From positions 62,001 to 126,000 of the forward strand of contig NIVC01002793.1 in NCBI GenBank assembly GCA_002269645.1: DNA of 64,000 nt. The letters run 5' to 3'. Positions 1 to 64,000 of the stretch are shown in pieces. Each line of letters starts with the position of its first letter. Position 1 is the stretch's first letter. The notes under the pieces were generated by a model that ran no database searches, was not told the DNA's origin, and saw only the letters and a program-made list of their open reading frames with translations. The stretch is from Macrostomum lignano. Taxonomy: Eukaryota. A program made the position numbers and the translations under genes.

Positions 1-217
1 AAGCACAAGTGTTATTACTTCGATAGCTATGGGACGGCAGTACCAGAAGAGCTAAGAAATTATATGAAGGGAAAAAAATAAAAAAATTTATCGCTCAGAC
101 TTTATTCTCCAAGGTCTTAGCAGTGATATTTGCGGTGAGCTGTGCATGACTGTTTTGTATGCAATGACCAAAACACGAAAGACCTACAAGGAAATTATTC
201 TTGGCTGTGTTTCATAG
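1..217 (+). CDS. Adenain-like (Polinton PRO) cysteine protease, C-terminal part, with a +1 frameshift in the A7 run at 72-78
   Basis: Frame 1 reads KHKCYYFDSYGTAVPEELRNYMKG. Frame 2 continues KIYRSDFILQGLSSDICGELCMTVLY to TAG at 215-217. YFDSxG and Q-x4-5-CG-x2-C are adenain-family motifs. Confidence 0.8.
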
Positions 218-220
218 GGT

Positions 221-935
221 TCATTGTGCATTTCTCGTTGTCCTTCTCGTTGTCCTTCTTTCCACATAATGTTGAAGAACTTTCTCGAGTTCATTTCTCA
301 GCTGACTCATGTCATCAGTACCGACCATGTTCAAGTTCATTCGAATTGATTGTTCATAAAGATCCTGAATGGTTTTGAACTCATCCTCTGAAATGAACTT
401 ATCCTCGATTGCCCTTGAAATGTACCCTATGATTGATGTGTGCACCCCTTTCTCTTTTACTTGCTTCTCCTGTAGCTGCTTTAGTTTTTTTCGCCTGTTT
501 CGCGCTAATGCTCCAGTAATTGCTGAAATAAGTCCACATGCAGCACCACAGAGCCGAGCGGATTGCGATTGGGGCTGTGATGGCTGGCAACACTGAGACA
601 GCTGCAGCAGACCCAGTTAGAACAGACACAGATCCTAGAATCATATTGCTGTAGTCAAAAAATTTACAGTGGCTGTCATAGCGCTTAATTTTCTTTGTGT
701 TGTGGAAAATATTTTTTTCAAGATCATCGCGCATTTTTTGAATCTCCACCAGTCGAAACTGTTGAGAGTTACAAGTAATGACGGGGTAGAGTTTTTGTTG
801 CTCATATTGGGGTGCATTCAGATTCGGTGCATTCAGGCTTTGTGTGTTCGAATTCGGTGCCATTGAGTTTGGTGCTGTCGGTATTTTAGGTTCAACGTAT
901 TGAGACTGATCGTATAGAGAATTTTGTTGGGCCAT
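221..935 (-). CDS. Uncharacterised viral protein with a central hydrophobic hairpin; frameshift at about 553-561 joins track ORFs 399..1019 and 221..445
   Basis: ATG at 935 in an AAAAAATG context. The hydrophobic segment ILGSVSVLTGSAAAVSVLPAITAPIAI continues in the shifted frame as LCGAACGLISAITGALARNRRKKL and then ISRAIEDKFISEDEFKTI. Confidence 0.7.
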
Positions 936-1029
936 TTTTTTCTCTAGAAAAAATAATAAAAAAATTATAAAACTATCCGGTTGAAAGATCTGTTTTCTTT
1001 TTGATAATTCCATCTGCACCGCCGGTTGT

Positions 1030-1838
1030 CTAGGCGGCTCTCGTGACGCCGGAGGATCGCGAGTCCAGCAGGCAGCGGCTGGGCGGCTGACGTTTGAGAG
1101 CGTGCCGGATTACTCCGGCGGGGTCCAGAGCTCCTTCTACTCGATCTGTAGACATGACCGGACGAGCAGCAGATTCTGCTTCATCAATAGCAATATCACG
1201 AAGATTGAGTGTTCTCTCCAGACGATTAAGCCTCCTTAGTATTTTACCCCAGAGCTATACATTCCGTTTAGATAGCTACTGTGTGATACATCCTTTCTCT
1301 TTAATGCTTCAAGTCTTTCTTTGATTCGATCATGCAACGATGTTGACTGAGTCATGAACTCTTCTAAATTCCTCACTTTACCTGTGTTGGTTGCGACGTT
1401 TTCTTTAATTCTATCATGCAACGCTGTTGACTGGTTCATGAACTCTTCTAAATTATTTACTTTAGCTGTGTTTGTGAAAACTCCTCCTTCGAGAATACGC
1501 ATCCGTCTATCAGTGGAATTTCCCAGAAGATTAACTGATGATCTCAAGCCGTTGATTAGCGAGACTATCGAAGTTATTTCTGACCTTAGTTCATTAGTTG
1601 CGTTTAACAACGGCACATAAAGCTTATCACTTTCAAACTTCTGCCTAGCTACTTTAAGCCTGAGATCTTCCATGTTGATTTGCAACTGGTGCATGGAGCG
1701 CTCTAGGGCTTTCAGTCTGTTTTTATTCAGTTTGATCTCTGGGATCTCTTCATCAATGTTAATGTAGCGCTTGTCAAGGAAGGAAGTTGTGAGAGTGCTG
1801 TTGCCTGTAGTTGACTCACCTGCAAAGTTTATCGACAT
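1030..1838 (-). CDS. Coiled-coil viral protein with a 28-aa internal duplication; probably extends to the stop at 1030 via a 1-bp indel in the C4 run at 1247-1250
   Basis: Track ORF 1236..1838 has two copies of TNT.KV.NLEEFM.QST.LHDRIKE. Adding one G gives SSGGKILRRLNRLERTLNLRDIAIDE..., which stays open to TAG at 1030-1032. Confidence 0.6.
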
Positions 1839-1854
1839 CTTTTAATAGCAAATT

Positions 1855-2655
1855 TTAAATTACAGTTCTTTTTTCTTTGCTGATAATCACAAACTGGTAA
1901 GGCTGATTCCACTTGTCATAGCAAAGATTAACGAATTCCTCTTGTGAAATCTTTCTGCTTGAGTTTTTTGTTGGATTTATGAAATAGGCAGGCGCAATGA
2001 CCTCATTGTAAAATCTTTTTAGCCTGTCCTGTGGAATGGTTGGAAACAGGAGAATCAGATTGCAGTTCCCACGAATTGTTTTGTTCGGGAGCTCGAACCA
2101 ATTCTGTGCAATGTAAATTACATTGCAATTGTTATGTCGCCCTCTTGTAAAATAGTTTTCTATCTGCTTCTGTGGGCCTGTCATACAATCATCAAAGACG
2201 ATCAAATGCTTTCTCCCCTTTTCTAGCTCATCTGGTTGGGGTAGAAGTTTGGTCTTTGGATCAGCCTGTGGATCTCCATAGGTGAACACTTTAATGTTCT
2301 GCCATTTTTCATTGTCTTTGAGGTGCTTTGCATATTCAGCAGCTACAATTTCAGGGTTACTGGGAAGGCTCATTTGGTTATTAAAACATGCAATAATGTC
2401 CTCTTTGTGCAGTTTGTTTTGCAATCCAGAAATCAACATTTTATACTCATCTTGATACAGTGTGGGAGAGTAGATGTGCAGAGTGTCATAGTCGATAAAG
2501 CCAGGTCTAAGAAGCATGTTAAAGACTCTGAATGTTTTACCTGAACCTGATGAACCAACAACAATGCATCTGAAGTGACTCGGAATTGACTCGTGATGAG
2601 AAAACTTAATCTGATTACGCGTCCAGTGAGGATTGAAGTCGTTTGAAAAGTCCAT
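1855..2655 (-). CDS. A32-like (FtsK-HerA superfamily) genome packaging ATPase, 266 aa
   Basis: Walker A GSSGSGKT, Walker B HLIVFDD and arginine-finger motif RGRHNN. The true start is MDFSND at 2655, after an AT-rich leader. Confidence 0.92.
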   Translation of the reverse strand: MDFSNDFNPHWTRNQIKFSHHESIPSHFRCIVVGSSGSGKTFRVFNMLLRPGFIDYDTLHIYSPTLYQDEYKMLISGLQNKLHKEDIIACFNNQMSLPSNPEIVAAEYAKHLKDNEKWQNIKVFTYGDPQADPKTKLLPQPDELEKGRKHLIVFDDCMTGPQKQIENYFTRGRHNNCNVIYIAQNWFELPNKTIRGNCNLILLFPTIPQDRLKRFYNEVIAPAYFINPTKNSSRKISQEEFVNLCYDKWNQPYQFVIISKEKRTVI

Positions 2656-2693
2656 TTTTTCTATGATGAAAAAAAATTTAAATAATAAATAAT

Positions 2694-2840
2694 TTAGATG
2701 TGTCATTTCGGGACTTAGATGTGTCATTTTGGGACTTAGATGTGTCATTTTGGTACTTAATTGTGTCATTTCGGGACTTAGATGTGTCATTTCGGGACTT
2801 AGATGTGTCATTTTGGGACTTAGATGTGTCATTTCGGGAC
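2694..2840. repeat. 21-bp tandem repeat x7 (TTAGATGTGTCATTTCGGGAC)
   Basis: Seven near-identical copies read directly between the ATPase start and the stop of the next gene. Confidence 0.95.
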
Positions 2841-2867
2841 TAGTCTTGTACCCTCGGAAAGTACCCT

Positions 2868-3257
2868 TTAGTCAAATTTGAAACCACTTCCTTTTTTAAT
2901 GCTAGCCCTCATCTTCTCATAGACTGCAGGGTCCACACTGTCTGGATTTGGGGCCAATGGAGCCAGCGGGGCCAGTGGAGGCTGAATCTCTTGTTTAGGT
3001 GTTACAGTATCCTTTATCTTTTTGGCTGCTGTGGCTACACTGCCAGCCGCTTCGGCAACGTTCTTGATGTTCTCTTTGTTCTCTCCAATGACCTTAAAAA
3101 TCTTGGCCCCCTGAGCGATCAAATCGGCAAGACCGTTCCCTGAGCGTTCTTTTCTTGGATAGTGGCCTGCAGGGAAAAGTCCAGATCCGCGTTTAATGAG
3201 ATTAAGTTCCTCTTTGTCATAGTATTTGTCCACGTCTTTCTCAAAAATAATCGGCAT
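2868..3257 (-). CDS. Small viral protein (129 aa) with three GxG motifs; candidate protease-processed core protein
   Basis: ATG at 3257 in an AAAAATG context. Motifs KRGSGL, RSGNGL and KKGSGF. Confidence 0.65.
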   Translation of the reverse strand: MPIIFEKDVDKYYDKEELNLIKRGSGLFPAGHYPRKERSGNGLADLIAQGAKIFKVIGENKENIKNVAEAAGSVATAAKKIKDTVTPKQEIQPPLAPLAPLAPNPDSVDPAVYEKMRASIKKGSGFKFD

Positions 3258-3273
3258 TTTTACTTGAAATAAA

Positions 3274-4492
3274 TTATTTTTTGTTGAACCGCGAAAGCAG
3301 AAGCTCTCTCGCCCGTTTGTCAATATACTTCTTTTCCATCATTTTGTCCAGGATGTTGACAAATTCTTTTCTATTTTCATCTTTCATTCCGGTCTTTGCT
3401 GCTCCTAGAAGAACCGCTACTCGCTTGTAGATTTCAGAAATTCCTTTTCCTGTTGAGGGCGGTTGGTCTTGGGTTGTGGAGTTGGTTGGGCTTGTAGCTG
3501 CTGGGGAGGTGATGCAAAAGACTGCTCACTTTCAGAGATGGAACTGTCATGTGGTGCCTGTCTTTGTTGAGGTGTGAAAACTCTTTGCTTGATTCTGTTC
3601 ATTCGATCTGGAGAGTGTTGTTCTAAGTGTTGCCAGGCATCTGGGTGATCATTTTTATATTTAGCTACTTGAGTCGGATCTGCATTTTCCAGTTGCCTGA
3701 GTACTTCTGTGAAATGTTGCTGCTGCTGTGGTTGTGGTTGTTGTTGCTGTTGTTGTTCTAGATATTTTATGACTTCCGCCTGATCTGGCAAATCGAACCA
3801 TTGTTTAAAGTGCTTGTACTTTTTGAATTTAGTCAGGTTGACACCGCTATCGTACATGTGTTTCAAAACTTCTGGGACCTTTAGTATTTCTATATCTCTA
3901 ACAAGAGAAAAAGTCACTAGATCTCTATAGTTCTTTAGCTGTTTGTCCGAGATTCTCTCTTGGTTCTTGGTCATAAAAGTCAGTAAGGTTTCTGTGAAAG
4001 GAATGCTCTTAGTTTCTGAGCCTTTGACAACAGAAATATTTTCCTTATTTATGTCGATATAATATTCCACTGGTTCATTATAAATATTTTTTCTCCACAT
4101 ACTTATTCCAAATACATATTTCCCATCATGTTCGACACGCTCTACTGGTCCAAAAATGTTATCTGTCACTTTTAGTTGTGATTGATGTGGTTGTGATTGT
4201 TGTTGTGATTGTTGTGGTTGCGGTTGTGTCTGTGGTTGCGGTTGTATCTGTGGTGCTTCTGGAATTTTACCCAAAACCTTTTGCACTTGGGTTTCCTGTA
4301 TGTCGTCGATAGTTTCTTTGACCTGATCAATATTTTTCTTAGCTTCTCCATACCCGGGTTTATGAAACTCTGTGGCTGCTTGGACAAACTCATTGTAGGA
4401 TTGTTGCTCCTTATTTATTAGCCCGGTAACTCGTTTCTCTGCTTGTGCTAGCTTCTCCAATTCAGATATCTGCTGTGTACTTTTCGCTTCAT
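3274..4492 (-). CDS. Q-rich viral protein with a helical C-terminus; two 1-bp homopolymer frameshifts (T4 at 4481-4484, G4 at 3503-3506) flank track ORF 3417..4460
   Basis: Restoring one A gives the start MKRKSTQQISELEKLAQ. The shifted frame gives the C-terminus STGKGISEIYKRVAVLLGAAKTGMKDENRKEFVNILDKMMEKKYID, ending at TAA 3274-3276. Confidence 0.6.
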
Positions 4493-4522
4493 TTCTTATT
4501 TTATTTTATTTTTAGTTAAAAA

Positions 4523-5809
4523 ATGAACGACCCACTGACACCAGTTTTCTACAAGATTAACAAGCCTATTTTGAGTGATGATAGCACAATCAAAGCGACT
4601 CAGGTAAGAGTTCCCAGTCAGGAAAATCAGAATGAAACTAATCTTGGTCCTGGTCAAACACTGACATTTACATACAATGGATGTTCGTCTCTGGTTAGTG
4701 TGCACAGTCTTAAGAGCGGCTTCCATATGACATTTCAATTCAAGACAAAAGGTGGTGCGGATGCGGCTCGTGCTAACGTTGACAAGCATGATGCGGATGT
4801 GGCTCTGATCAGTAACTTTTGGGCGTACATGTTCAAGGAATTTAGTGTATCGAATGGGAGCACAGAGTTGGAGCGAATCGCCAACTTTGGAATTGTCTAT
4901 GACGCTCATTGTTTGATCGAGAATCCTGATTTTATTCAGTTGGGAAGTGGTGCGGGTTTTATTGCAGATGAAAAAGAAGGAGACATCAATGACAGTGGCT
5001 ATAAAAAGAGGAAGAAGAGATACAACTATGCATTGCAAGGTGCTGATGATGCTGCTAAGAACCCGCAGTATCGGTCTGTTGATGTATTTGTACCATTGAG
5101 ATTCATGAGTGGATTCTGTAATACATTTAATCGACTGACTAGTAACTTTAGCTACACCTTTAGGATGACTAGAGATGATCGCAGTAGAGTGTTGTGGACT
5201 GGGGCGGACCACACAAGGATGGAGGTGAAGCTAACCGGAATCGAGCTGTATTTGGAAGTCATTGAGCCAAAGACCGCACTAAAAGCAGACTATCTTAAGG
5301 CAATAGAGAAGGACATTGATGTTGCATACACGGCCTACATGTGTCGAGATGAGCGAAACGAAACTAGAACAAACATCTGCATTAAAGAGGGATCATGCAG
5401 CAATCCAAGGTATATCATTATTAATATGAGAAACCCAAATAGCATTATACGCTACATGCATGGAGACGTGCGGTCCATTCAGCATGAAATCAGTGATAAT
5501 CTTTACCCTGCACTGCCACAAAATGGAGATTTCAGTCAGAACAAGATTAGCAAATTTTACAGCGAGTTGGTCGACTTGGCTGTGAAAGAGAACAATGGAA
5601 TTGCTATCACTGCTCTTCAATATGGAACTCTATATCCGATGTTTGGCGCTGATGTGTCTGCCAGACAAATGCCTACTGATAACAGCCCTGTGAATATCGT
5701 GACTAACATTGAAAGGACTGCCGCAACACCCGTGGACCTGTACATTGTCTATGCATTTGAGAGGAAGGTGAAGCTTAACATGATCAACAATTCATCCAGT
5801 AAAGTTTAA
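4523..5809 (+). CDS. Major capsid protein (double jelly-roll, Polinton PY-type), 428 aa
   Basis: Intact beta-rich ORF of the expected size, next to the penton and ATPase. The N-terminal SDDSTI..TLTF and C-terminal NPRYIIINM and LYPMFGADVS segments resemble Polinton MCPs (recognised from memory, not by search). Confidence 0.82.
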   Translation: MNDPLTPVFYKINKPILSDDSTIKATQVRVPSQENQNETNLGPGQTLTFTYNGCSSLVSVHSLKSGFHMTFQFKTKGGADAARANVDKHDADVALISNFWAYMFKEFSVSNGSTELERIANFGIVYDAHCLIENPDFIQLGSGAGFIADEKEGDINDSGYKKRKKRYNYALQGADDAAKNPQYRSVDVFVPLRFMSGFCNTFNRLTSNFSYTFRMTRDDRSRVLWTGADHTRMEVKLTGIELYLEVIEPKTALKADYLKAIEKDIDVAYTAYMCRDERNETRTNICIKEGSCSNPRYIIINMRNPNSIIRYMHGDVRSIQHEISDNLYPALPQNGDFSQNKISKFYSELVDLAVKENNGIAITALQYGTLYPMFGADVSARQMPTDNSPVNIVTNIERTAATPVDLYIVYAFERKVKLNMINNSSSKV

Positions 5810-5831
5810 ATATTTTTTTTAGGACAAAAAA

Positions 5832-6695
5832 ATGGAAGCTATAGCCGAAAGACTAAATAACATTGTTTCACACTCTAAGGAGAGCATTCCTATTACAATA
5901 ACTGGGCGAATTAATGACTCAAACGGGATGTTTGTTGAAAAATTAGAGCAGGCGATTCGCCTGGATCCAGGCGCTAATTACCATGTCTATCTTAACGACT
6001 TCACTGGTTGGTCAAACGTTCCCAATGTGATGGCAGCAAATAATAAGTTTTATTACAAATGGAAAGGTGCAGCAGCAGACCCTGTGGTATTCCATGTGAG
6101 CACGCAAAGTGTGGATACCTACAATAACTTTCTAGAAAATGTCTTTACTAAGAGAGGCCATTTTGAGACACCTGATGCGAGTAAGCCAGAGAAGAAACTG
6201 TTCCCTGTCAAACTAACCTATGATCTCACTGTAATGAGAGTGGTCATGCAAGTTCACAAAGATGCGGAGGTTGAGTTTAAAGATGACACTTGGTATAGGG
6301 AACTGGGATTCGAGAAGAAAGTTTATAAGGCAGAATCCGCGGCGCGGACCGCCACTCAAGCATCGGGGACTGTTACAATGGTCCGGGAAAGTGTACGCGG
6401 TTTGTTCTTAGCACCCAATATAGCAGACATTGTAAAGGGTTTGAATATTCTAATCAGAAGCAATCTCAGTCTTGATTGGGTATTTAAGGGAAAGCGAACG
6501 AATATTTTGTACAACATCTCCAACTCTGTTGCTGGAGGACAGATGGTGGTAGAGAAACCAAATCCAGTGAAAAGAGTTGTATTGAGTAATAAGGAGATTC
6601 ACGAGATTGTGCTACAGTTTGAGACTGAAGATGGGATGGGTGTTGATTTCAACGGTGAAGAGTTTGTATTGACGTTGATCATTGAGAGAATGTAA
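5832..6695 (+). CDS. Minor capsid / penton protein (single jelly-roll, Polinton PX-type), 287 aa
   Basis: Motifs IRLDPGANYHVYLNDF..SNVPNVMAANNKFYY and ILYNIS..GQMVVEKPNP..IHEIVLQFETEDGMGVDFNGE match the Polinton penton pattern. It starts 22 bp downstream of the MCP. Confidence 0.85.
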   Translation: MEAIAERLNNIVSHSKESIPITITGRINDSNGMFVEKLEQAIRLDPGANYHVYLNDFTGWSNVPNVMAANNKFYYKWKGAAADPVVFHVSTQSVDTYNNFLENVFTKRGHFETPDASKPEKKLFPVKLTYDLTVMRVVMQVHKDAEVEFKDDTWYRELGFEKKVYKAESAARTATQASGTVTMVRESVRGLFLAPNIADIVKGLNILIRSNLSLDWVFKGKRTNILYNISNSVAGGQMVVEKPNPVKRVVLSNKEIHEIVLQFETEDGMGVDFNGEEFVLTLIIERM

Positions 6696-6699
6696 GAAA

Positions 6700-6939
6700 T
6701 CACAATTGCTTAATTATTTCTGCAAAGTTATAGTAGCTGTCATAATCTTTTACATAGGTTACTCCATACTTATGAAACCAATGTCTTTGGAGAGCTAGAT
6801 TAATATTAGGGACATTGATATCAACGTTGGGCCAATATTTTCTCATGTATTCGCTGCATTCAAGTTTGCATCGGTACTTACTCTTGTAATTAGGCTCGTG
6901 CGTTTTGTAATAAGAACCTGGAGAGACAACTGGAAACAT
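6700..6939 (-). CDS. Small Tyr-rich hypothetical viral protein, 79 aa
   Basis: ATG in an AAAAATG context. It is convergent with the penton and the stops are 4 bp apart, like the 217/221 convergent pair. Confidence 0.55.
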   Translation of the reverse strand: MFPVVSPGSYYKTHEPNYKSKYRCKLECSEYMRKYWPNVDINVPNINLALQRHWFHKYGVTYVKDYDSYYNFAEIIKQL

Positions 6940-7148
6940 TTTTATTGAGAATTTAATTTTTTTTAAAGGGTGAGGACCCTGCGCTGATGATTTAAAGTCT
7001 TAGGGATGTGGTAGCACGTTGCGGATTGAATGTGTGGAGAAGAATGCAGATTATTTTCTGATTGTTTTAGAAATGTTATGGGTGGATGTCAGTGGATTAT
7101 GTCAGTGTCAGTGAACATAACATGTGTTAGTGGACATCTGTTATGCAC

Positions 7149-7370
7149 TGATTCTGTCAGGGATAATATGGATGGATTTAATACGATTATGTTCGAAGTT
7201 TTCGGAGCAAGTGCGACCCCTCCACTTTTTCATGATTCTGTCGGGGATAATATGGATGGGTTTGATGGGATTATGGAGGACGTTTTGTGAGCGAGTGCGA
7301 CCCCCCTTTTTTTCTGATTTTGTCGGGGATAATATGGATGGATTTAATGGGATTATGGAGGACGTGAAAA
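7149..7370. repeat. About 83-bp imperfect tandem repeat (roughly 2.7 copies)
   Basis: TGATTCTGTC(A/G)GGGATAATATGGATGG recurs at about 7149, 7232 and 7315. Confidence 0.85.
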
Positions 7371-7514
7371 ATTTTGTCCTAGAAGCCCCCTCATGCATTC
7401 TACTTCTTCGTAATCTTGCTATTCCTTATCGTTTAAATCTACCTTACGCAGACGTCACCGTATAGCCGAACTTATAACATGCCCTCATCTTCAGTCTTGT
7501 TGTTAAAGGAGGAG

Positions 7515-9040
7515 GGAAGCCGGGGCAACCCGCGGATCAGCCCAGAGAAGGGCTCTGCCGCTATAGGATAGGGGCCATACTACCCGAGAGGCCCAGATTG
7601 GGACCAGGACTCAAGGCCTGGTGAAGCCTTATTGGATGCTACTAACCCAAGCTTATGGAATAAGACAAGCCTATGGACCTATGGACCAACCCATAGCAAG
7701 GCGAGTCTCCTATCAGGTAGGCCACCACATAGATCCTCCTATAGGGCTGCGAGCCTCAAGGCTTTTTTACTACTTAGCTCTGATAAGCCCAAGCCAAGGG
7801 GTTGGAGAGGAACACCAAGGAGCGAGGAGAAACCAGACTCAGCCGGTTTTCCCCGATTCGGGACGAACTCGTTCCCCAGGACCAGGACACCAATCCACTG
7901 TCAGAGATGAGAGCCAGACACAAAAGCAGAGAGACAACCAGACGAGCCAGCAGATGGACCAAGGGAGCAGATGGAATCACAGAGGCAAGATCTATCAACT
8001 CCTAATATTTGTGCCAGATAAAACCAAATAAAAGCAAGGGATACGAGTAAAACACAAAGAGGCCACAAAGGCTATGGAGGATCACACGACCTCTAAGGCT
8101 CAGCCGCAGGGCTGGCATCAACTGGGCTCTACCGTACACCTTTGTGAATGGTCTTCTTTCCTGCAGGGCAGGTGCGACCGGGGGCTCAAGTCCCGTTCTA
8201 GCCACACTGCAGTCCAGAGTATGCAGTCCAGAGTACACACTCACTCCAGGTGCACCCCCCCCCCCCTAAACCAAGGCCGAGGGCCAAATTGGATAGAAAT
8301 AAATAGGGTTATTTTTAGAACGGGCACAGCCCCTCCGGGGCGGACCCTTGGTGATTGGGCAAGAGAGAGCTAGGTCAATTGGATTGTTGTTGTTAAACGG
8401 GGGTGGGAAGCTGGGCTTACCCGCGGATCAGCCCTTAAGGGGGCTCTGCCGCTGCGGGGCACTTTCCAAGGGCACGGGGAATTCCGTGAACCCGAGATAC
8501 CCTCCTCGGAAGTCCGAGAACCAATTTAGTTGGGCCCTGACTAAGACCAGGGGAGGCGAGGGACTTCAAACCTATGGAACAAGACACCGCCAATCCAAAA
8601 AGTGGAATCAGGGACAGTGCTAGGACCGAGTCCACCCAGGCCACCCCCCCCCAGCAGACAAGTTCTCGGGAGTGCGCTTCAGAAATAGAATTGGAAATCG
8701 AAAAAGCGGTCCGAGAGCGGGGATTCCCCGATGTCTACGGAAAAGGCTTTACTATTGGAGTGAGTCTGGAAGGCTTGTTTCCGAGGGGGAGACTCCAGGC
8801 GGGAGACCGGCCGCCTCTATTGCTACCAACCCAAGGGCATCGCCTATCCAGCTCTAAACAGGGCCAGGCCAAGGGGGGAGGGGCACAAGGGGCAAGAGGA
8901 AACCGGACGCAGCCGGTTTTCCCTGATTCGGCACGAACATCCTTCCCAGGACTCCAATCCACTGTCAGAGATGAGAGCCAAGACACTTAGGCAGGGAGAC
9001 ATCCAGAGGAGCCAGCAGATGGACCAAGGACAGAGCACAA
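7515..9040. repeat. Diverged direct duplication of a GC-rich module of about 0.9-1.1 kb in the subterminal region
   Basis: Shared blocks CCCGCGGATCAGCCC..GGGCTCTGCCGC (about 7530 and 8420), CAGCCGGTTTTCCC, CCAATCCACTGTCAGAGATGAGAGCCA and GAGCCAGCAGATGGACCAAGG (about 7840-7965 and 8910-9030). Confidence 0.8.
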
Positions 9041-9145
9041 CCGAGAAATGCTATCTTCAGTCTTAGCGGTTTTTTCTGTTTAAAACTGCATGAATGCTCC
9101 CAACTTGCCTAAACTAACCATTCTTAACTATTTTGCTAACCGAAA

Positions 9146-9160
9146 ACTACTACTAGTAGT
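9146..9160. other. Candidate Polinton right terminus (ACTACTACT) and adjacent hexamer AGTAGT
   Basis: The sequence ACTACTACTAGTAGT is seen directly. GC-rich subterminal repeats lie to its left and AT-rich unique DNA to its right. Confidence 0.6.
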
Positions 9161-9622
9161 GTGATTGTACTATAAACGACCTACGATAGAATGAAAAGCT
9201 GATCTGTATCTCACCTGCTACAAATATCATCGAACAACTGCCCCCGGCCGTTACTCGTAATTTTATTGTTTTCAGATTTCCTTTCAGGCACATTTGAACT
9301 TGTCAAGCTTTTTAACAAAAAATATCAAACAATAAATGTAATGATATTTATTTAAGTTAAATAAACTCAAACGCTAAACAACTCAACGATTAACGAACAA
9401 TAAAACAAGGAAACAAAAGTTGACTATTTGCTGAAATGAATGGTGATGTCATGTAGAATTTTTTTGTGCTAAATTGGAGACTGAAAATATTTTGATATAA
9501 ATTGTCTAAAGAGCCAAGTAGGAGCAAATTCTGACTAGTCAAAAGACAAATTGATAAGAGGACTGTGGAAGAGTGACTGGACGAGAGTTCCATCATAGAG
9601 TGGCTTAAAGAGAATGAATGCA

Positions 9623-10354
9623 AGAGAGTGCCTATTGGAGAGTGCCTATCGGAGAGTGCCTATCGGAGTGCCTATCGGAGTGCCTATCGGAGTGCCTATC
9701 GGAGAGTGAGAGTGCCTATCGGAGAGTGCCTATCGGAGAGTGCCTATTGGAGAGTGCCTATTGGAGAGTGCCTATCGGAGAGTGCCTATCGGAGAGTGCC
9801 TATCGGAGATTGCCTATCGGAGAGTGCCTTTCGGAGAGTGCCTATCGGAGATTGCCTATCGGAGTGCCTATCAGAGTGCCTATTGGAGAGTGCCTATTGG
9901 AGAGTGCCTATTGGAGAGTGCCTATCGGAGAGTGCCTATTGGAGAGTGCCTATCGGAGTGCCTATCGGAGAGTGCCTATCGGAGAGTGCCTATCGGAGAG
10001 TGCCTATCGGAGTGCCTATCAGAGTGCCTATTGGAGAGTGCCTATTGGAGAGTGCCTATTGGAGAGTGCCTATCGGAGAGTGCCTATTGGAGAGTGCCTA
10101 TTGGAGAGTGCCTATCGGAGTGCCTATCAGAGTGCCTATTGGAGAGTGCCTATCGGAGAGTGCCTATCGGAGAGTGCCTATCGGAGAGTGCCTATTGGAG
10201 AGTGCCTATTGGAGAGTGCCTATCGGAGTGCCTATCAGAGTGCCTATTGGAGAGTGCCTATCGGAGAGTGCCTATCGGAGAGTGCCTATCGGAGATTGCC
10301 TATCGGAGAGTGCCTATCGGAGAGTGCCTATCGGAGATTGCCTATCGGAGTGCC
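9623..10354. repeat. Minisatellite of 14-bp (GGAGAGTGCCTATY) and 12-bp (GGAGTGCCTATC) units
   Basis: Direct reading; the array ends 8 bp from the tyrosinase stop codon. Confidence 0.97.
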
Positions 10355-10361
10355 GTCTGTC

Positions 10362-13300
10362 TCAAGTGGCAGCTCCCGGATGCTCAGCCAGGAAGCGCTG
10401 CAGCTCGTCCTCGAATTCGTGGCGGTGCAGGCGGTGCTGGGGGTGCAGGAAGCCGCGCTGGCAGTTGACGAAGTGCTTCAGCGTTGGCTTGGGCATCCGG
10501 CCCTCCTTCTGCAGCCTGCGCCGAACTGGCTCGCCGAATTCCAGCGTGTCGTATTCGTAGCCGAGAGAGGCGATGTCGGTAAAGACCTCCTCGTGCCGGA
10601 TTGGCGGGTAGAACCCGACCATGTAGCTCTGGCGGTCGTGCCCCGGCGACACGTTGATGTTGGCCATGTCCACCGGGTGGGGACGGTGGCGCAGGAACCA
10701 CATGTGCACCAGGCGGCTGATCTGCGAGTGGTGCATGAAGAAGATCGGATCGTTGGGTGCCGTGGCGGCGCAGCAGAAGCTGCCCATAACCGAATTGTGC
10801 ACCTGCGGGAGATAGGAGCATCATGCCTTCAGGTTCGATTGGTCACCTGGATTCGTTACTCGTTACAAAGAACATAACCCGTAGAGAGAACTGATACATG
10901 CTAACAGAATACAAGTTTTAAATTTTCTAGACAGTCACTTCCAAAGACTCTTGGAGAGTCATCTCTAATAGCCACTCCCGAATGGACACTCCTGAAGAGT
11001 CCCTCCTAAAAAGTCACTCCTGAAGATTCACTCCTAAAAAGTCACTCCTGAAGATTCACTCACTCCTGAAGAGTCACTTCTGAAGAGTCACTCCTGAAGA
11101 GTCACTCCTGAAGAGTCCTTCCTGAAGAGTCGCTATTGAAGAGCCACTCCCAATGAGTCACACACAAACGATCACTCCTAAAACGTTCCCCTAATTCCGT
11201 CACTCTCAAAAAGTTGCTAAATCGGTCACCCCACCCCAGCCGTCACCTTATTATGCAGGGTGCCAATTTTGCCATAGAGCTCCATGGGGCCGCAGTGACC
11301 CTCCAGGTATCTGGCGAAGCCACAGTTCTCCAGGTCCTGAGCTGGGCGGTTGAACTCCTCTGGATAATAGTACCGCGGAATGCTCAGGCCGTAGTTCACC
11401 TCGGCAGTGGTTGGCAGCGACAGGCTCGTCCACTGCCTGACGAGCTTGCCGAATCGTTCAGCGGCGTGGCAGCCGTAGCAGGAGCCGCCGCCCAGCTGCT
11501 GGCGGTCCTTGGCGGACGGCGTGGTGCAGAACTCGTCCCAGCCGCCGAAGGGGCTGGCCGGGTGCAGTCGCTGGCCGAAGTTGTCGCACTCGCCCGGCGC
11601 GCCAACGATGTCATTCTGGCAGACTTCGCACCAGGTGGCGTCGACCCAGTCCCAGTAGGGCAGGCCGAAGGTTGTCCAGTTGAACCTCTCCACCGCGATC
11701 TTGTGCAGCTCGCGCTCCAGCATCATGGTGTAGTAGCGGTGCCAGGTCATGAAGCCGGGGCCGCCATGGTTCAGGTCCAGGATGCCAAACTGCTGGCACT
11801 GCTTCGCGTCCGGGAACAGGGTGCGACGAGAGGCGTACCTGGGTAGGCGAAGGTGCGGGTGCGGGTAGTGGCGCACCGGGGAACAGAGGAAGCAGGAGAA
11901 TTGTGGAACAGGACCCGTTGAAAACGTTTTCCTGACAAGAATTGCTAAAGAGTCATTGCAAACAACTCACTAGTGACTCTAGCGGCTCTGAGGCGACTCT
12001 TGCGACATTTTAACGACTCAAACACGTCAAATGAGAGGCGGAGGCGACTGTTTAGTCACGAGCGCGTCACGTGAGTTGTGACTCTGATTCATAAAGCGAT
12101 GCAAATTCGCTTCAGACACAACTCATTGACTCTACAGCGACTCCAGCACGCCTCAGATAGGACTCTACGACCCCAGAGTCGTAAACAATAAAACGCTACA
12201 AAGTGATGCTTAAGTCAACATCTCGTCGGTTTAGAGTTGTTTGGAGTCACTGTTTTTCCTACATGCGTTACCTGCAACGACTCTGAAGCGATTCTGGGAC
12301 GCTTCTTGGCCTGGGTACCGTTTCCATGGGGGGGGGAGAAAAAAAGCAGGTAAAATAAATATTTGCAGGAGGTTTCGTCGACAAGTAGGAACTTCTAACT
12401 AAGAAGCGGAGGATGTCAGGGGTTGATGAAAGTTTGAGATATTACCGTGTTGATTTAAGATTAATCTAGCAACTAGTATAAAGCCGGCAGGTGTCAATCA
12501 AGGCATTAGCAGACGCACCTGTGCACATACACCAGCCAGTAGTGCACAGTGGCGGGCACGAACACTGGGCTCCTCAACGGGTCAGACTGGTTATTGTACT
12601 TTTCAATCAGCACAGAGTACGGCGACATCTTCACCCGCATCAGCCGGCTGATTTCCCTGTACTGGTCTCGCTCAGCCGGGCTCAGCGTAAAGATGTTGCG
12701 CCTCAGCCTCACGTCGCGCTGGTTGCAGCGGGGGCCGCGCCAGCCGAAGAAGCACTCGCCGCAGTCGGCGCCCCAGTAGCGCGAGTCGCACTGGCAGCCA
12801 AACTCGAAGAACCGGCTGGGCCACATCAGCCGGTCGTCTCTGCGGTTTAAATTGGAGCGAAAATATGCTTTGGTGACTAGTGATAATAGGATACACGTAA
12901 GTAGCGCATAACGCCTTGGGCATCAATATGCTGCTAAGGGGTATCCTCAGGGTGCTAATAGGTATTTGGAGGGTGCTAATGGGTATCTGAAATGTCTCAT
13001 GTGCATCTCAAAAGAAGCGTTGATTACTTGTTGGAGACTATGGGTATCTGAAAAGGACAATGGGTATCTGGAAAGGACAATGGGTATCTGGAAAGGACAA
13101 TGGGTATCTGGAAAGGATAATGGGTAATCCGAAAAGGACTATGGGTATCTGAAAAGGACAATGGGTATCTGAAAAGGACTATGGGTATCTGAAAAGGACC
13201 ATGGGTATCTGAAAAGGACCATGGGTATCTGAAAAGGACCATGGGTATCTGAAAAGGACCATGGGTATCTGAAAAGGACCATGGGTCTCTTAAAATAACC

Positions 13301-32626: not shown

Positions 32627-33919
32627 CGAGGGGCACTATTAAAGTTCTGAGCCTGACCAAGATCTTATAGTGGCAAAGTGTTGAAACTTTAGGCTCTAAA
32701 AGCGCCACATGTTAATAGTCTATTGTCAACTTTTCAGAATTTTCTGCATTCCCTAAGTCCCACTGCACCATTTTATTTCCAGCACCCCATGGCATTTTCT
32801 CAAGAATTGAAGCTTGAGCACAGGGCAGTGATTAAATTTCTGACTCTGGAGGGCTCAAAGCCTGCTGAAATTCAAAGCCGCATGGCTAGTGTGTACGCTG
32901 ACGCTGCCCCCTCATACGCCACCATAAAGCGCTGGGCAGCCAAGTTCAAGCGTGGCCGCGACTCGCTCGAAGATAACCCCCGATGTGGACGACCCCGGAC
33001 TGCTGTCACTGCCGACAACATCCAGCGCATCCAGGCTCTGGTTGACAGTGACCAGCGGGTGAAAGTCAGGGAACTTGCGGCAGACACTGGACTCTCTGAC
33101 CCGCAAGTCATTGAGATCCTGCACCAGCATCTTCATCTGTCCAAGGTTTCTGCCAGATGGATCCCACGAATCTTGACAAGGGACCAAAAGACCGCACGGG
33201 TGCAGTACTCAAAGCTTGTCCTGGACTCCTACGATCCGGACCCTGCCAACTTTCTGTCCTGCTGCGTGACCGGGGATGAGACGTGGATCCATCACCACGA
33301 TCCCGAGTCCAAGCAGGAGTCCAAGCAGTGGCTGCCAGTTGGTTCACCTGCACCACTGAAGGCACGGACTGCATGCAGTGCGGGCAAGATTATGCTCACC
33401 GTCTTCTGGGATGCCAAGGGCCCGCTGCTGCTGGACTTTCTACCGCACAAGCAGACAGTCACAGGCGCCTACTACACTGACCTGATCGCCCGTCTGCGCG
33501 AAGCAATCAAGGAAAATAGGCGAGGGATGCTGAGCCAAGGTGTTGTGCTGCTGCACGACAATGCACCGGCCCACACTAGCAGGATTGCCAAGGCTGCTGT
33601 CAGTGTCGCAGGGTTTCGAGAGCTGCCGCACCCAGCCTATTCACCAGACCTAGCCCCGAGCGACTTCCACCTGTTTCCACATCTCAAGCGGGCGCTCCGT
33701 GGACAGCGATTTGACACTGATGATGCGCTGAAGGATGCTGCAACTGCTTGGTTTGAGGGCTGCTCGGTGCAATTCTTCCAGAGTGGCATTGAGGCGCTGC
33801 GATCAAGATGCCATAAGTGCATCTTGGTTGGGGGAGACTATGTTGAGAAAAGCTGATCTCACTTTGCCCATATCTCCTCTCTTTCATATTAAGGCTCAGA
33901 ACTTTAATAGTGCCCCTCG
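32627..33919 (+). mobile_element. Intact 1293-bp mariner transposon
   Basis: Perfect 28-bp TIRs CGAGGGGCACTATTAAAGTTCTGAGCCT, TA on both sides, and an intact transposase. Confidence 0.97.
32789..33856 (+). CDS. Mariner DD34D transposase, 355 aa
   Basis: HTH N-terminus, GRP, WIPRIL, TGDETW, HDNA and YSPDLAPSD motifs; probable start MAFSQELK at 32789. Confidence 0.96.
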   Translation: MAFSQELKLEHRAVIKFLTLEGSKPAEIQSRMASVYADAAPSYATIKRWAAKFKRGRDSLEDNPRCGRPRTAVTADNIQRIQALVDSDQRVKVRELAADTGLSDPQVIEILHQHLHLSKVSARWIPRILTRDQKTARVQYSKLVLDSYDPDPANFLSCCVTGDETWIHHHDPESKQESKQWLPVGSPAPLKARTACSAGKIMLTVFWDAKGPLLLDFLPHKQTVTGAYYTDLIARLREAIKENRRGMLSQGVVLLHDNAPAHTSRIAKAAVSVAGFRELPHPAYSPDLAPSDFHLFPHLKRALRGQRFDTDDALKDAATAWFEGCSVQFFQSGIEALRSRCHKCILVGGDYVEKS

Positions 33920-59419: not shown

Positions 59420-61376
59420 CATCAAGTTGACCCTTTAAGTTACGACACAACATCTTACTCCTATCCAATTGAAATCACCAGCCGTAGCGCTGCAGAGGAC
59501 GTCGCGGACGAGTGGACCGTCGCAGAGCCCGAGCCGGTGGTCCATCGGCTGGACCAGGAGTCGGTGTTCGAGCCTTTCCTCCTCCGTCTTGCGTTGCCCA
59601 CTCTTGGACATCCACGAGAGGATCAAACTCGCCAGCCGCAGATGCCTTGTAGTTTAGTCGCAGAGATGTCGGCACCAGCGCTTGCTGGTTCCAGGTGCTG
59701 CCGTCCGCCAGTCGACAGGCCGCCTTGACGATCTGCAGCGGCGCAGAGAGCCGGCTGCCGAGCTTGCCAGGTCGTGTTGGCCGGCGGATCCGGACCCAGT
59801 CACCGGTGCGTAATGTCGGCTGCCGGGCTCCACGCCGTTGGTCGGTGTACGCTGAAGTCCGCTGTTGACGCTGCTGAATACGTTCGGCGATATCAGACTG
59901 CGCAGCAGTGCCCTTCTTGACCGGAGCGAGTAGAGACATGGGCGTGCGCCAACGGCGACCCAACATCAGTTCGGCCGGGCTCTTGACAGTCAGGGCGTGC
60001 GGCGTGCTGCGGTAGCTCTCGAGAAACTGCAACAGCGCGTCCTGCATCGGCACGTTGACGGCTCTAGACGCTCGAATGCTGTCCATCAGGGACCGTTTGA
60101 GCCGCTTGGTTTGACCGTTGGTGCTCGGACCGTACAGACAAGTCTTTAGGTGTTGGATGCCCCGCTCTTGAAGGAACCCGGTAAAGGCGTCGCCGAACTG
60201 AGGTCCGTTGTCGGCAAGGACCTTCTCGCAGAGGCCCCAGCGTGCGAACAGGTTGCGTAGCACCTTACAGACCGTGTCGGTGGTGATGCTTGAAGTCGCG
60301 AAGACCTCCAGCCCCTTGCTGTGCAGATCCGTGATGACCAGTAGGAATCGTGACGACGCCGGCGCTGCCTGCAGTTCACCCACGATGTCGATGGCGATCT
60401 CTGTCTAGTGGCACTGGCAGGGGCTGCAGCGGAGCCGATCGCAGCTTGAAATTTTTCTCCACAGTCTCGCAGGCGCCGCAGTCTCTGACGAACGTCTCGA
60501 CGTCGGCGTCCATCCTCGGCCACAAGGTGAACTCGCGAAGCTGCTGCTTGGTACGCACCGCCCTCGGATGTCCCGCATGCGCGGACTTCAGAAGCTCACG
60601 CCGCAGGTCCTGTGGGATGACGGCGCGGTCTTGGAAGGCCAGACAGGAGCCGTCTTGCCAGGTGCTAAAATGCTCTCGGACTTTTAAGTACGGCTGCAAC
60701 TCCGTGTCCTTGGCCAAACTCCAGTTGCCGGTGGGAACTCGCTGAATGACTTCGCGCAGGATCGTGTCCTCTGCTTTGGCCGTCGCTAGCCGCTGTGGCG
60801 TGACGATTCGGAGTCGAGGCATTGCGGTGTCTGGCAATTGGATGATGTTCATGTCGGACCCGCAGCTCCACCTGGACAGCATGTCGGCCACCAAGTTGCG
60901 ACTCCCCGGGAGGTAGCGCGCATGAAATTCGTACTGCTGAAATCGGTCACACATCGGTGAATGCGCAGCAGATTGCCGCTTTAAGCGCCTGGAAGGCTCG
61001 CTCGCATTCAGCTGTCCATTTGAACTCGGCATCGCCCTTGAGCAGAGGCCTCAGCGGCGTTGTGACCTCGGCAAAGTGGGGCACGAACCGCATCAGATAG
61101 TTTGCCGATCCAAGGAACGCCTGCAGCTCCTTGCTCGTCGGCGCGCGCAGCTCATTGAAAGCCTTGGTTTGAGACTCGGACGGCCGGATGCCCTCCGCCG
61201 AGAAGACAAAGCCGAAGAACTCTAATCTCGGTCTGCCGTAGCTCGCACTTGTCCTTGTTGGCGGTGAGGCCGGCGTCCTCCAGTCGCTTCAGCAGAGCTC
61301 ACAGCATCGAGTCATATTCGGCCTCAGTTGCTCCGAAGACATCCAGTCAGTTGACCCATCAAGTTACGACACAACA
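59420..61376 (-). mobile_element. Internally deleted Ty3/Gypsy LTR retrotransposon (RT tail, RNase H tail, integrase); the 3' LTR extends below 59452 to an undetermined end
   Basis: RT thumb ELQAFLGSANYLMRFVP, RNase H end YLPGSRNLVADMLSR, H2C2 HAGHP..CGAC, and rve DNGPQF..YRSTPH. The polypurine tract at 59453-59466 is followed by TGTTGTGTCGTAAC; the same LTR start recurs at 61376. Frameshifts and stops are present. Confidence 0.88.
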
Positions 61377-62036: not shown

Positions 62037-64000
62037 ATGGCAAGTTGGGGTGAGTGTGCTTGTAGCATTCATATAATAATGGGCCGTTGTTACGGTCGAA
62101 AAGTAGTTTAAACCAAACAAAATAATTGGTCATTTTTAGCGCCCTGGAAATTCTTCGTAGTCCTGGTTGCCACTCAGGTGTGCTTGGGCAGCGGTGAAGT
62201 TAGCAGTAAGTTACACGTGAATATTTTTAAACGTCACAATCTTTAGCTTATTTTTTGTGACAGAAGGCACTGTAGCTGTAGGCTTTACTATAAGACTTCT
62301 TTATTATGGCAAACAGTTTTAAGACACAATAATACGTGTGCATGCACTTGTTCTTGAGTTGATTGCCACATTGTTATCATAGATATAGCGTCATTGTTAG
62401 CAAAACCCTGGAACCGTAGTGTTACAAACGCATCAAGGTACAAACAATCTAGTAAAAATTCAACTAACTTAACTCGAGAAGGTACGAGAGAGGCATGAGA
62501 AAGAGTCCGCCGAGATTTTCCTGCAGGAGATTTGCCAGTCAGCTCTGAATATCTACATGTAAGGGTTGTTACAGAGTGTTGCTCATGCAGGAGCGTCATC
62601 TACCCAGATAGTATTCCGTGTTTGAACGTGGCATCCATGAATATGTTGTTATACAAGTGTATTGTTGCGCTGCTGGCGCAAAATCTATCAAGTTGTTCTC
62701 ACTTTTTGTTTCAGATTGTCCAATATTTCAACTTCTAAATGTTAGCACTCATGGTGCCATTGAAAGCCACTCGAACACTGATGATTACCTGAGCAGTTTG
62801 GCCTGCACCTGGCAGATCAACGCTCCTAGAGGCAAGAAAATTGCGGCCTGGTTCGATTTTGTTCATCTCAGTCCAGGAAATTATTCGTCCGTGACCGTAA
62901 TCGACGGAGAGAAAGGGTCGCGAGCGATTGGCAGAGTCGATGGGCGTGACGGTCGACACTTCTTGTCGCCAAAGTACATCTCTACTGGAAACGTTTTGTT
63001 AATCTATTTTCAAAATCCTGAAAGTAAATTTAATAGCGGTTTTCGACTTCACTACGAGGTTTCGGAAAGCTGTAAGTTTGCTAACTTGGTTTGATCTGTT
63101 AGAGATCACCGGACAAAAGCTATTGGTCAAAACCTCTGGAAAAATGCTGTTAGAGCCTTGGGTTTGCTCATCTCCACTAAATTCCGCTCCTCCTGTGGAT
63201 AGACAGCCTGTCCTGAAAAATCCTAACTGCTGATGTTTTTAGTGTATTGGGCGGAAGGGGATATGACTGGGTCAAAAATACTCTGTAGTACAGTTACTGC
63301 TTGCACCAATATTTATGGAGGGGTTTGCAGGATCTCCGAGGCTCTGGTGTCAGTCGCAGCAGTCTACTCCAAGAGGCAAGCGGACTGCTCGAACTTTTGC
63401 ACAATCTCGGAAAACAGTGGCGAAATCGCGAGCCACTCCAACGGCTGCAGCCGCCAGCGCTACGGCAATAATTTGGTGTGCAGCTGGCGGATAGCTGTAG
63501 CCCGGGGCAAGAGGGTGATGGCCTGGTTTGCTTACGTCGACCTAGAAGAAGCTTTTGACTGGGTCGCCCTGCTGGACGGTGACGGCGACAGTAAGTCAGG
63601 GCTGGTCGTGAAAGTCAGCAAATCTGCAGCTGCCAGATTCCAGTCGCCGATTTACGTTTCAACCGGTAGCAAAATGCTGGTAAAGTTCAAATCCGACTCC
63701 AGCGTTTCAGGGTATGGATTCCGGATGCACTTCAAAACTACCGAGAGTAGTGAGTACAATTAAAAAATTTTAATCGAGAAAATATGCTTGTCTCTTGACG
63801 CTAGTTCAATAGACCCTGGAAAGACGGGACAGGCGGTTCCAAAAATATTGATAAGCTATTTGACTGATTGACACAAGCAGGTTTTCATAGCTCTGTTTGC
63901 TTTTTAATCAAACAGCAAGGCAATTCTTGGTGCTCTTTGTTTATTTTTATCAGCTTCAAACGGCTCGTGCCTGGAAAAGTCGTGGCTGGATGCAGGGCAG
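62037..64000 (+). CDS. Secreted/membrane tandem-CUB-domain protein, 5' part: exons 62037-62049, 62140-62205, 62715-63071, about 63360-63749, and 63954 to beyond the window end
   Basis: Signal peptide MASWAPWKFFVVLVATQVCLG and two CUB domains (CTWQINAPRGKKI..F, YGNNLVCSWRI..FKSDSSVSGYGFRMHF) on phase 1-1 exons. The acceptor of the second CUB exon is ambiguous. Confidence 0.8.

Follow-up and report, generated by a model that had tools for sequence, protein, structure and literature searches.

A young Polinton family in Macrostomum lignano that probably spread as virus particles

Introduction

Polintons (Mavericks) are integrated DNA elements reported at 12.7–24.6 kb, with terminal inverted repeats (TIRs) of 46–1,447 bp (PMC8097293, PMC4028283). 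Their pPolB polymerase is described in general terms as carrying terminal-protein and vOTU domains (PMC11161782), and Orthopolintovirales insertions have been reported in many invertebrates (bioRxiv 10.1101/2025.04.19.649669). Polymerase exchange between Polintons has been described in nematodes (PMC10748475), and mosaicism in entomopoxvirus-associated elements (PMC11296320). One survey takes purifying selection acting on morphogenesis genes as evidence that virions form, while presenting particles of animal Polintons as not observed and virion formation as an open question (PMC8097293). We describe here an element of Macrostomum lignano whose right part opens a stretch of 64,000 nucleotides (assembly GCA_002269645.1, contig NIVC01002793.1, here C2793, positions 62,001 to 126,000 of the forward strand). 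This whole stretch is called the window, and positions given without a contig or stretch name count from its first letter. The element is assigned to the true Polintons, and its young family probably made virus particles, and was carried by them, during its recent spread.

Gene content and termini of a Polinton

With neighbouring stretches joined to the window, the element measures 16,108 bp (C2793:53297-69404). The 8.7 kb that precede the window hold the left TIR, accessory open reading frames (ORFs), a PLA2-like gene, an rve integrase, an adenovirus pX-like gene, pPolB and the start of a protease gene. The right TIR (6702-7404) has an inverted partner of 93.8% identity 8.0–8.7 kb left of the window. 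The element starts with AGTAGAA and ends with TTCTACT, and the TIR ends, AGTAG...CTACT, match the rule that Polinton TIRs are bounded by 5'-AG...CT-3'. The integrase is an open frame of 345 aa (PF00665, 37.5 bits against a cut-off of 32.6). pPolB matches PF03175 (37.9 bits, cut-off 25.8), contains the motifs DxNNLYG, KxxNNSVYGK and YTDTDS, and has a weak endonuclease VII match, as do 22 of 23 aligned pPolB sequences; a pPolB profile run against PDB sequences gave no match.

Every defining feature tested was found at family level. With animal Polintons the family shares pPolB, the rve integrase, the packaging ATPase, the protease, a major capsid protein (MCP) of the double-jelly-roll type and a penton, as well as the 16 kb size, a TIR of about 700 bp, a 6-bp target-site duplication (TSD), core genes under purifying selection, and variable accessory regions adjoining the TIRs. 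It differs from them in gene order, in its gene-level mosaicism and in a pPolB that is 28–37% identical to database relatives; those relatives that are named belong to insects, a coral and a mollusc. Alpha adintoviruses, too, combine PolB, integrase, hexon and penton with a PLA2-like gene and a pX-like domain, but are described with a fused PLA2X (PMC8502044), whereas here PLA2 (PF08398) and pX (PF05829) are separate ORFs on either side of the integrase, both in the window copy and in its siblings. In the literature searched, nothing could be recognised as an account of this family, or of such a gene-start signature (see below) in Polintons, although the family may already be listed in Repbase or among the elements of PMC10748475 and bioRxiv 10.1101/2025.04.19.649669.

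The original prediction named the element a Polinton-like virus. The four virion-assembly genes are indeed all there and it is a Polinton, but the label undersells it: Polinton-like viruses, strictly defined, are described as mostly lacking the pair of pPolB and rve integrase (PMC5499653), and the element has both and so falls outside that group.

Capsid and penton folds

Profiles and predicted folds bore out the gene content first proposed, namely protease, packaging ATPase, major capsid, penton and five further ORFs. Structure prediction confirmed jelly-roll folds in both frames for which it had been suggested, the modelled product of 4523..5809 being a double-jelly-roll MCP and that of 5832..6695 a single-jelly-roll penton. 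The MCP frame matched PF21738 below the cut-off (E 3.4e-5). The top Foldseek and VIA matches of its model were all double-jelly-roll capsids, among them PBCV-1 Vp54 (Foldseek E 6e-10), Sputnik (9e-10) and the faustovirus MCP (VIA Z 10.1, root-mean-square deviation 7.4, 327 aligned). The penton model (pLDDT 78.6) matched mavirus, Sputnik and adenovirus pentons. Its Foldseek match to the mavirus penton had E 1e-9, and VIA gave PBCV-1 chain a6 (Z 12.3, deviation 3.2, 132 aligned) and the mavirus penton (Z 12.2, deviation 9.5, 234 aligned). Because both folds, pPolB, the integrase and the matching TIR were found, the two objections raised with the original prediction, a lack of jelly rolls and a lack of these left-flank features, fall away.

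The proteins are as divergent as had been suspected, MCP and penton being 10–13% identical to their best PDB matches. A word-index search gave nine MCP relatives at E<=1e-3, and MCP sequence patterns found no close relatives in the viral-contig and metagenome-contig collections. With mavirus the element shares pPolB, the rve integrase and a penton fold that is its closest by Foldseek; it differs in this low protein identity and in having no known helper.

A young family with target-site duplications

The family is young, and its many integrations left 6-bp target duplications. The exact 18-base terminal motif occurs 253 + 251 = 504 times in the assembly (control 0), or about 250 elements' worth of ends. 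By comparison, the highest totals reported for vertebrate Polintons are 172–287, of defective elements (PMC8097293, PMC4028283), whereas many capsid genes are open here. MCP identity was 98–100% in all 40 scored matches (the best 40 of 345 candidates), and among the 96 MCP matches that scored best, 93 were free of internal stops. The copies sampled came from 37 stretches, which take in 38 of the 39 highest MCP matches besides the window copy, and from 19 further ones chosen by terminus or by junction search. The median pairwise MCP distance was 1.8% among 54 copies and 2.5% among 13 copies picked by termini (maximum 22%). Flanking hexamers of the 26 two-ended copies formed 19 exact 6-bp TSDs, one pair one base off, one shorter overlap and five unmatched pairs; in 9 of the 19 TSD-matched copies, the left and right TIRs differed by at most 0.8% substitutions. 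Low MCP divergence and the many exact termini thus agree with the recent origin first proposed.

The CpG retention that had also been pointed out holds against the 18-39 kb region (observed/expected 0.44, compared with 0.67 in 1-7404) but not against 7.4-18 kb (0.69) or 39-64 kb (0.87). Retention as a clock was rejected: private transitions were no commoner at CpG than at other C/G sites (0.089 and 0.077 per site), so CpG says nothing on age. The capsid stretch was present in 20 of the 24 runs listed, from nine studies under one organism label, and the best-matching run may be the assembly's own source; no RNA run was among those listed as containing it. Two Polinton copies have nested ORFs of long-terminal-repeat retrotransposons (L116:3926-5380, L121:638-1348).

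Selection, recombination and probable spread as virus particles

Among variants shared between copies, counted against the commonest codon of each column, the ratio of non-synonymous to synonymous rates (dN/dS) was 0.11 for the MCP (183 synonymous, 77 non-synonymous), 0.17 for the penton, 0.09 for the ATPase, 0.15 for the integrase, and 0.30 and 0.09 for two segments of pPolB. No shared stops were found in the genes counted. Within the set of at least 98% identity the MCP ratio was 0.06; the long ORF and the protease, whose rows there were out of frame, are excluded. Such purifying selection on its capsid genes makes it likely that the element moved as a genuine virus until recent times.

The copies are mosaics at the level of single genes. 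In the 18 TSD-matched copies compared, pPolB lies within 3.9% of the window copy, while alleles diverged by about 20% appear gene by gene, in the ATPase of 3 of 19 copies, the long Q/P-rich ORF of 3 of 17, and MCP with penton in 1 of 18. Incompatibility under the four-gamete test rose from 10% of site pairs less than 100 bp apart to 62% beyond 5 kb (550 sites, 19 copies).

We also weighed an intracellular self-synthesising transposon, spread through the germ line by pPolB and integrase only, its capsid genes being passengers conserved from an earlier viral phase. Five short elements of 0.6–3.8 kb with both termini (L098, L099, L100, L103, L104), likely non-autonomous derivatives, fit such a course. 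Three have exact 6-bp TSDs, and loss of the capsid genes therefore does not prevent mobilisation. L098 has one flank and an exact TSD in common with L099, and L104, also with an exact TSD, contains capsid-side sequence only. The singleton dN/dS of the MCP (0.61) points the same way. Passenger genes, on the other hand, sit poorly with 53 synonymous against 12 non-synonymous shared MCP variants among copies less than 2% apart, with MCP constraint equal to or above that of pPolB, and with alternative capsid and penton alleles (82–83% amino-acid identity) that are open too. We therefore consider the transposon account unlikely, and spread in virus particles the probable one.

Several points weigh against spread in particles. 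Confidence in the MCP model is low (pLDDT 53.8, pTM 0.44). The 504 termini overstate the insertions, because short derivatives and repeated assemblies of one insertion are counted, and independent insertions are fewer than about 250; host genes, too, stand in several near-identical copies in the assembly, and some insertions were fetched two or three times. The 40 scored MCP matches were chosen by likeness to the window. Mis-assembly of a 16-kb repeat is a possible partial cause of the five plainly unmatched TSD pairs, and could also account for part of the mosaic signal. The dN/dS counts are crude, with no tree and no correction for multiple hits, and low shared-variant values can stem from an older exogenous phase, reshuffled by recombination. 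Singletons gave 0.23–0.61, closer to neutral, as expected after insertion. None of the 26 two-ended copies has an uninterrupted pPolB (longest 896 aa) in this error-prone assembly, and protease, ATPase, MCP and penton all reach their modal lengths in 3 of the 26, a count based on N-terminal tags, where an altered tag counts as zero.

What the analysis shows is that copies integrated with 6-bp TSDs and multiplied recently, that virion genes are constrained and that the copies are mosaic. The other steps of particle-borne spread would resemble those of known Polintons. Protein-primed replication, starting at the TIR ends, would copy the element as a linear molecule, and the ATPase would load it into capsids made of MCP and penton, which the protease would mature. 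PLA2 and pX may help in entry and DNA condensation (for PLA2 and entry, PMC8502044), and the rve integrase would insert new copies. Co-resident molecules likely recombine, with the diverged alleles swapped onto a near-uniform polymerase backbone. Its hundreds of termini and numerous open capsid genes, the selection visible at less than 2% divergence and the active swapping of alleles make the family a good place to seek particles, episomes and transcripts.

The window copy as a join of two insertions

The 6-bp TSD anticipated at the window copy was not found; its flanking hexamers are unlike, TGAGTC on the left and TCTTCG on the right. Contig C3908 has the left flank of the window copy, with TGAGTC on both sides of its element. 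The sole junction found with TCTTCG at a terminus is the left junction on C1241, a contig that ends inside the element. The two ends are accordingly assigned to two different insertions. Since each has its partner on another contig, the failed TSD marks a joined copy and carries no weight against the family. Within the assembly the sequence of the right flank occurs once, and one run's contig spans the right junction without differences, though with only 29 letters on the TIR side against a 31-letter rule.

The simplest reading, and a likely one, is a mis-join of two sibling insertions across the repeat during assembly. Mismatched ends could instead be real, ectopic recombination between two insertions having joined two chromosome regions; the family does recombine, and in 5 of the 26 two-ended copies the two flanking hexamers are plainly unrelated. 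Such an event is improbable here, given that C3908 has the left flank again, there with a proper TSD, that the partner of the right flank lies on a contig breaking inside the element, as a mis-join would leave it, and that the region is full of indel errors.

The "complete" virion module first described stands in part. In the window copy ATPase, 129-aa ORF, MCP, penton, 79-aa TIR ORF and integrase are open, but the protease (three frames) and three of the five other ORFs (221-935, 1236-1838, 3274-4492) are frame-broken relative to siblings, as is pPolB (three frames). As had been stated, no frame ends in a stop clearly born of a substitution. Most of these breaks are probably assembly or sequencing errors, because gaps far outnumber mismatches and private indels far outnumber stops. 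The window copy and C3908, two assemblies of one insertion, differ in their first 2 kb by 1 mismatch and 19 gaps; private one-base indels far exceed stops across copies, and the integrase has 81 private frameshift indels against one stop in 25 copies. Inside several of the broken genes, contigs from four public runs, three of them presumed to be RNA, are longer or shorter than the window. Frameshifts and missing TSDs in such long repeats may thus be assembly products and call for caution.

A position of 9154 had been given as the right boundary of the element. The end lies at 7404. The stretch 7405-9400 was unmatched in all other fetched Polinton stretches, and 7450-9200 matches a different dispersed repeat (best 40 of 714 candidates scored). 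Two diverged copies of this unrelated, non-coding repeat of about 650 bp occupy 7450-9150, with at least 40 relatives elsewhere at 77–95% identity.

Gene starts and the helper question

All 14 core gene starts are at least 75% AT over 32 bases, compared with 3 of 19 host starts, and 13 of the 14 have an A-run directly before the ATG, compared with none of the 19; the host control comprises 19 distinct starts of two gene families only, histone H3 and beta-tubulin, from 32 of 64 pattern matches fetched. The pattern is maintained across alleles. TAAA stands within 4 bases of the ATG in 9 of 14 starts, and two divergent gene pairs have only 30–31 bp between their start codons. A splice or trans-splice acceptor before each ATG was ruled out: AG is absent from most genes and is not kept across alleles (16 of 56 for the penton, 19 of 47 for the hydrophobic ORF).

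AT-rich A-run starts also occur in IMG/VR contigs L162 (8/12), L166 (5/11) and L169 (5/11), compared with 1–4 of 68–81 internal ATGs; these counts are lower bounds, since the automatic first-ATG rule also takes shadow ORFs (6/12 in the window copy, against 13/14 by hand). Among the 19 contigs examined, the pattern was absent from other related ones, for example L164, L172 and L180. Because some related contigs share it, the signature is best assigned to a clade and is not unique to this Polinton family. L162, L166 and L169 are public viral contigs of 15.6–17.6 kb with related pPolB, ATPase and MCP (21–25% identity), and with a penton in L162 and L166.

Such starts resemble the TAAAT/TAAAN initiators reported to mark poxvirus and yeast linear-plasmid promoters (PMC6211774), and mosaic genomes with compact AT-rich gene starts are shared with mavirus and entomopoxvirus-associated elements (PMC11296320). 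The element might therefore be helper-dependent in the manner of a virophage: a co-infecting large DNA virus would supply the RNA polymerase that transcribes its genes, and its integrated copies would wake only when that infection occurs. Besides the contrast with host starts, the tight divergent pairs and the related contigs, Maverick-related elements described in entomopoxvirus occlusion bodies (PMC11296320) speak for it. We nevertheless give helper dependence little credence: the start sites are predicted from sequence, the A-run may be no more than a context for translation initiation and the AT tract may act as a terminator, AATAAA, a signal that host RNA polymerase II uses, occurs within the element, TAAA adjoins the ATG in only part of the starts, and the host control covers two families. 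The helper-virus markers PF04947 and PF04451 had no match in the assembly, where the controls were also unmatched, so this search is uninformative. It would be a bold and rather doubtful step further to see in the family an animal virophage, that is, recombining integrated Polintons with poxvirus-type AT-rich promoters of about 30 bp, read by a large DNA virus as helper; their hundreds of copies in the germ line would be an inducible reserve against viruses. The signature offers a cheap handle on host versus helper-virus transcription.

Other genes and genomic setting

The features within the window are collected in Table 1.

Table 1. Features of the Polinton and its right flank, in window positions.
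Feature	Position	Strand	Remarks
Polinton, right 7.4 kb	1..7404	.	Left 8.7 kb precedes the window
Adenain/Ulp1-type cysteine protease, 3' part	1..217	+	Starts 181 bases before the window; frame-broken as assembled
ORF without assigned family, hydrophobic stretch and basic helix	221..935	-	Split over two frames
Coiled-coil ORF	1236..1838	-	200 aa here, 241-317 aa in 10/26 siblings; frame break near 3' end
A32/FtsK genome-packaging ATPase	1855..2655	-	266 aa, open; PF04665 27.4 bits, cut-off 22.8
21-bp tandem repeat	2673..2862	.	Between 129-aa ORF and ATPase start
Conserved 129-aa ORF	2868..3257	-	Open; no Pfam family; purifying selection among copies, dN/dS 0.12
Long Q/P-rich ORF	3274..4492	-	394-415 aa in 10/26 siblings; frame-broken near both ends here
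Predicted double-jelly-roll MCP	4523..5809	+	Pfam below cut-off; predicted-model matches
Predicted single-jelly-roll penton with insertion domain	5832..6695	+	287 aa, open; predicted-model matches
79-aa ORF within TIR	6700..6939	-	Open; hence at both element ends
Right TIR, about 700 bp	6702..7404	.	Internal 82-84-bp repeats; ends ...CTACT; 93.8% identity to left TIR
Right-flank hexamer TCTTCG	7405..7410	+	No match to left hexamer TGAGTC

The protease is 132–133 aa long in 10 of the 26 two-ended siblings, and a sibling ORF matches PF00770 just above the cut-off (21.6 against 21.3 bits). The ATPase has a Walker A motif GSSGSGKT and a Walker B motif LIVFDD. The Q/P-rich ORF stands head-to-head with the capsid gene, 31 bp separating their start codons, and an atlas search with it gave no usable match. 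For the ORF at 221..935 the nearest atlas clusters were unnamed viral and mollusc proteins, which is a lead only, and a weak relative was found in L169. Variable accessory ORFs lie beside the TIRs (L115:6354-7028, L127:6354-7166, L039:7350-8966), with 225 aa in three copies, up to 271 aa in five and a repeat-derived frame of 539 aa in two; they gave no trusted Pfam match.

The element is flanked by host genes, xanthine dehydrogenase-like on the left and tyrosinase on the right. At L012:2751-4895 and L013:89-1156 lie the former gene, with long exons, and a non-LTR reverse-transcriptase fragment that adjoins the left TIR. A long 10–12-bp tandem array (9570-10350) lies just 3' of the tyrosinase gene (10362-11966; PF00264, two coding segments). 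Further along the window, an open 387-aa Tc1/mariner transposase frame (32693-33856) lies within the 18-39 kb region earlier called decayed. Pieces of a Gypsy-type integrase (H2C2, rve) occur on the reverse strand at 59475-61050, and a CUB-domain segment at 63227-63763.

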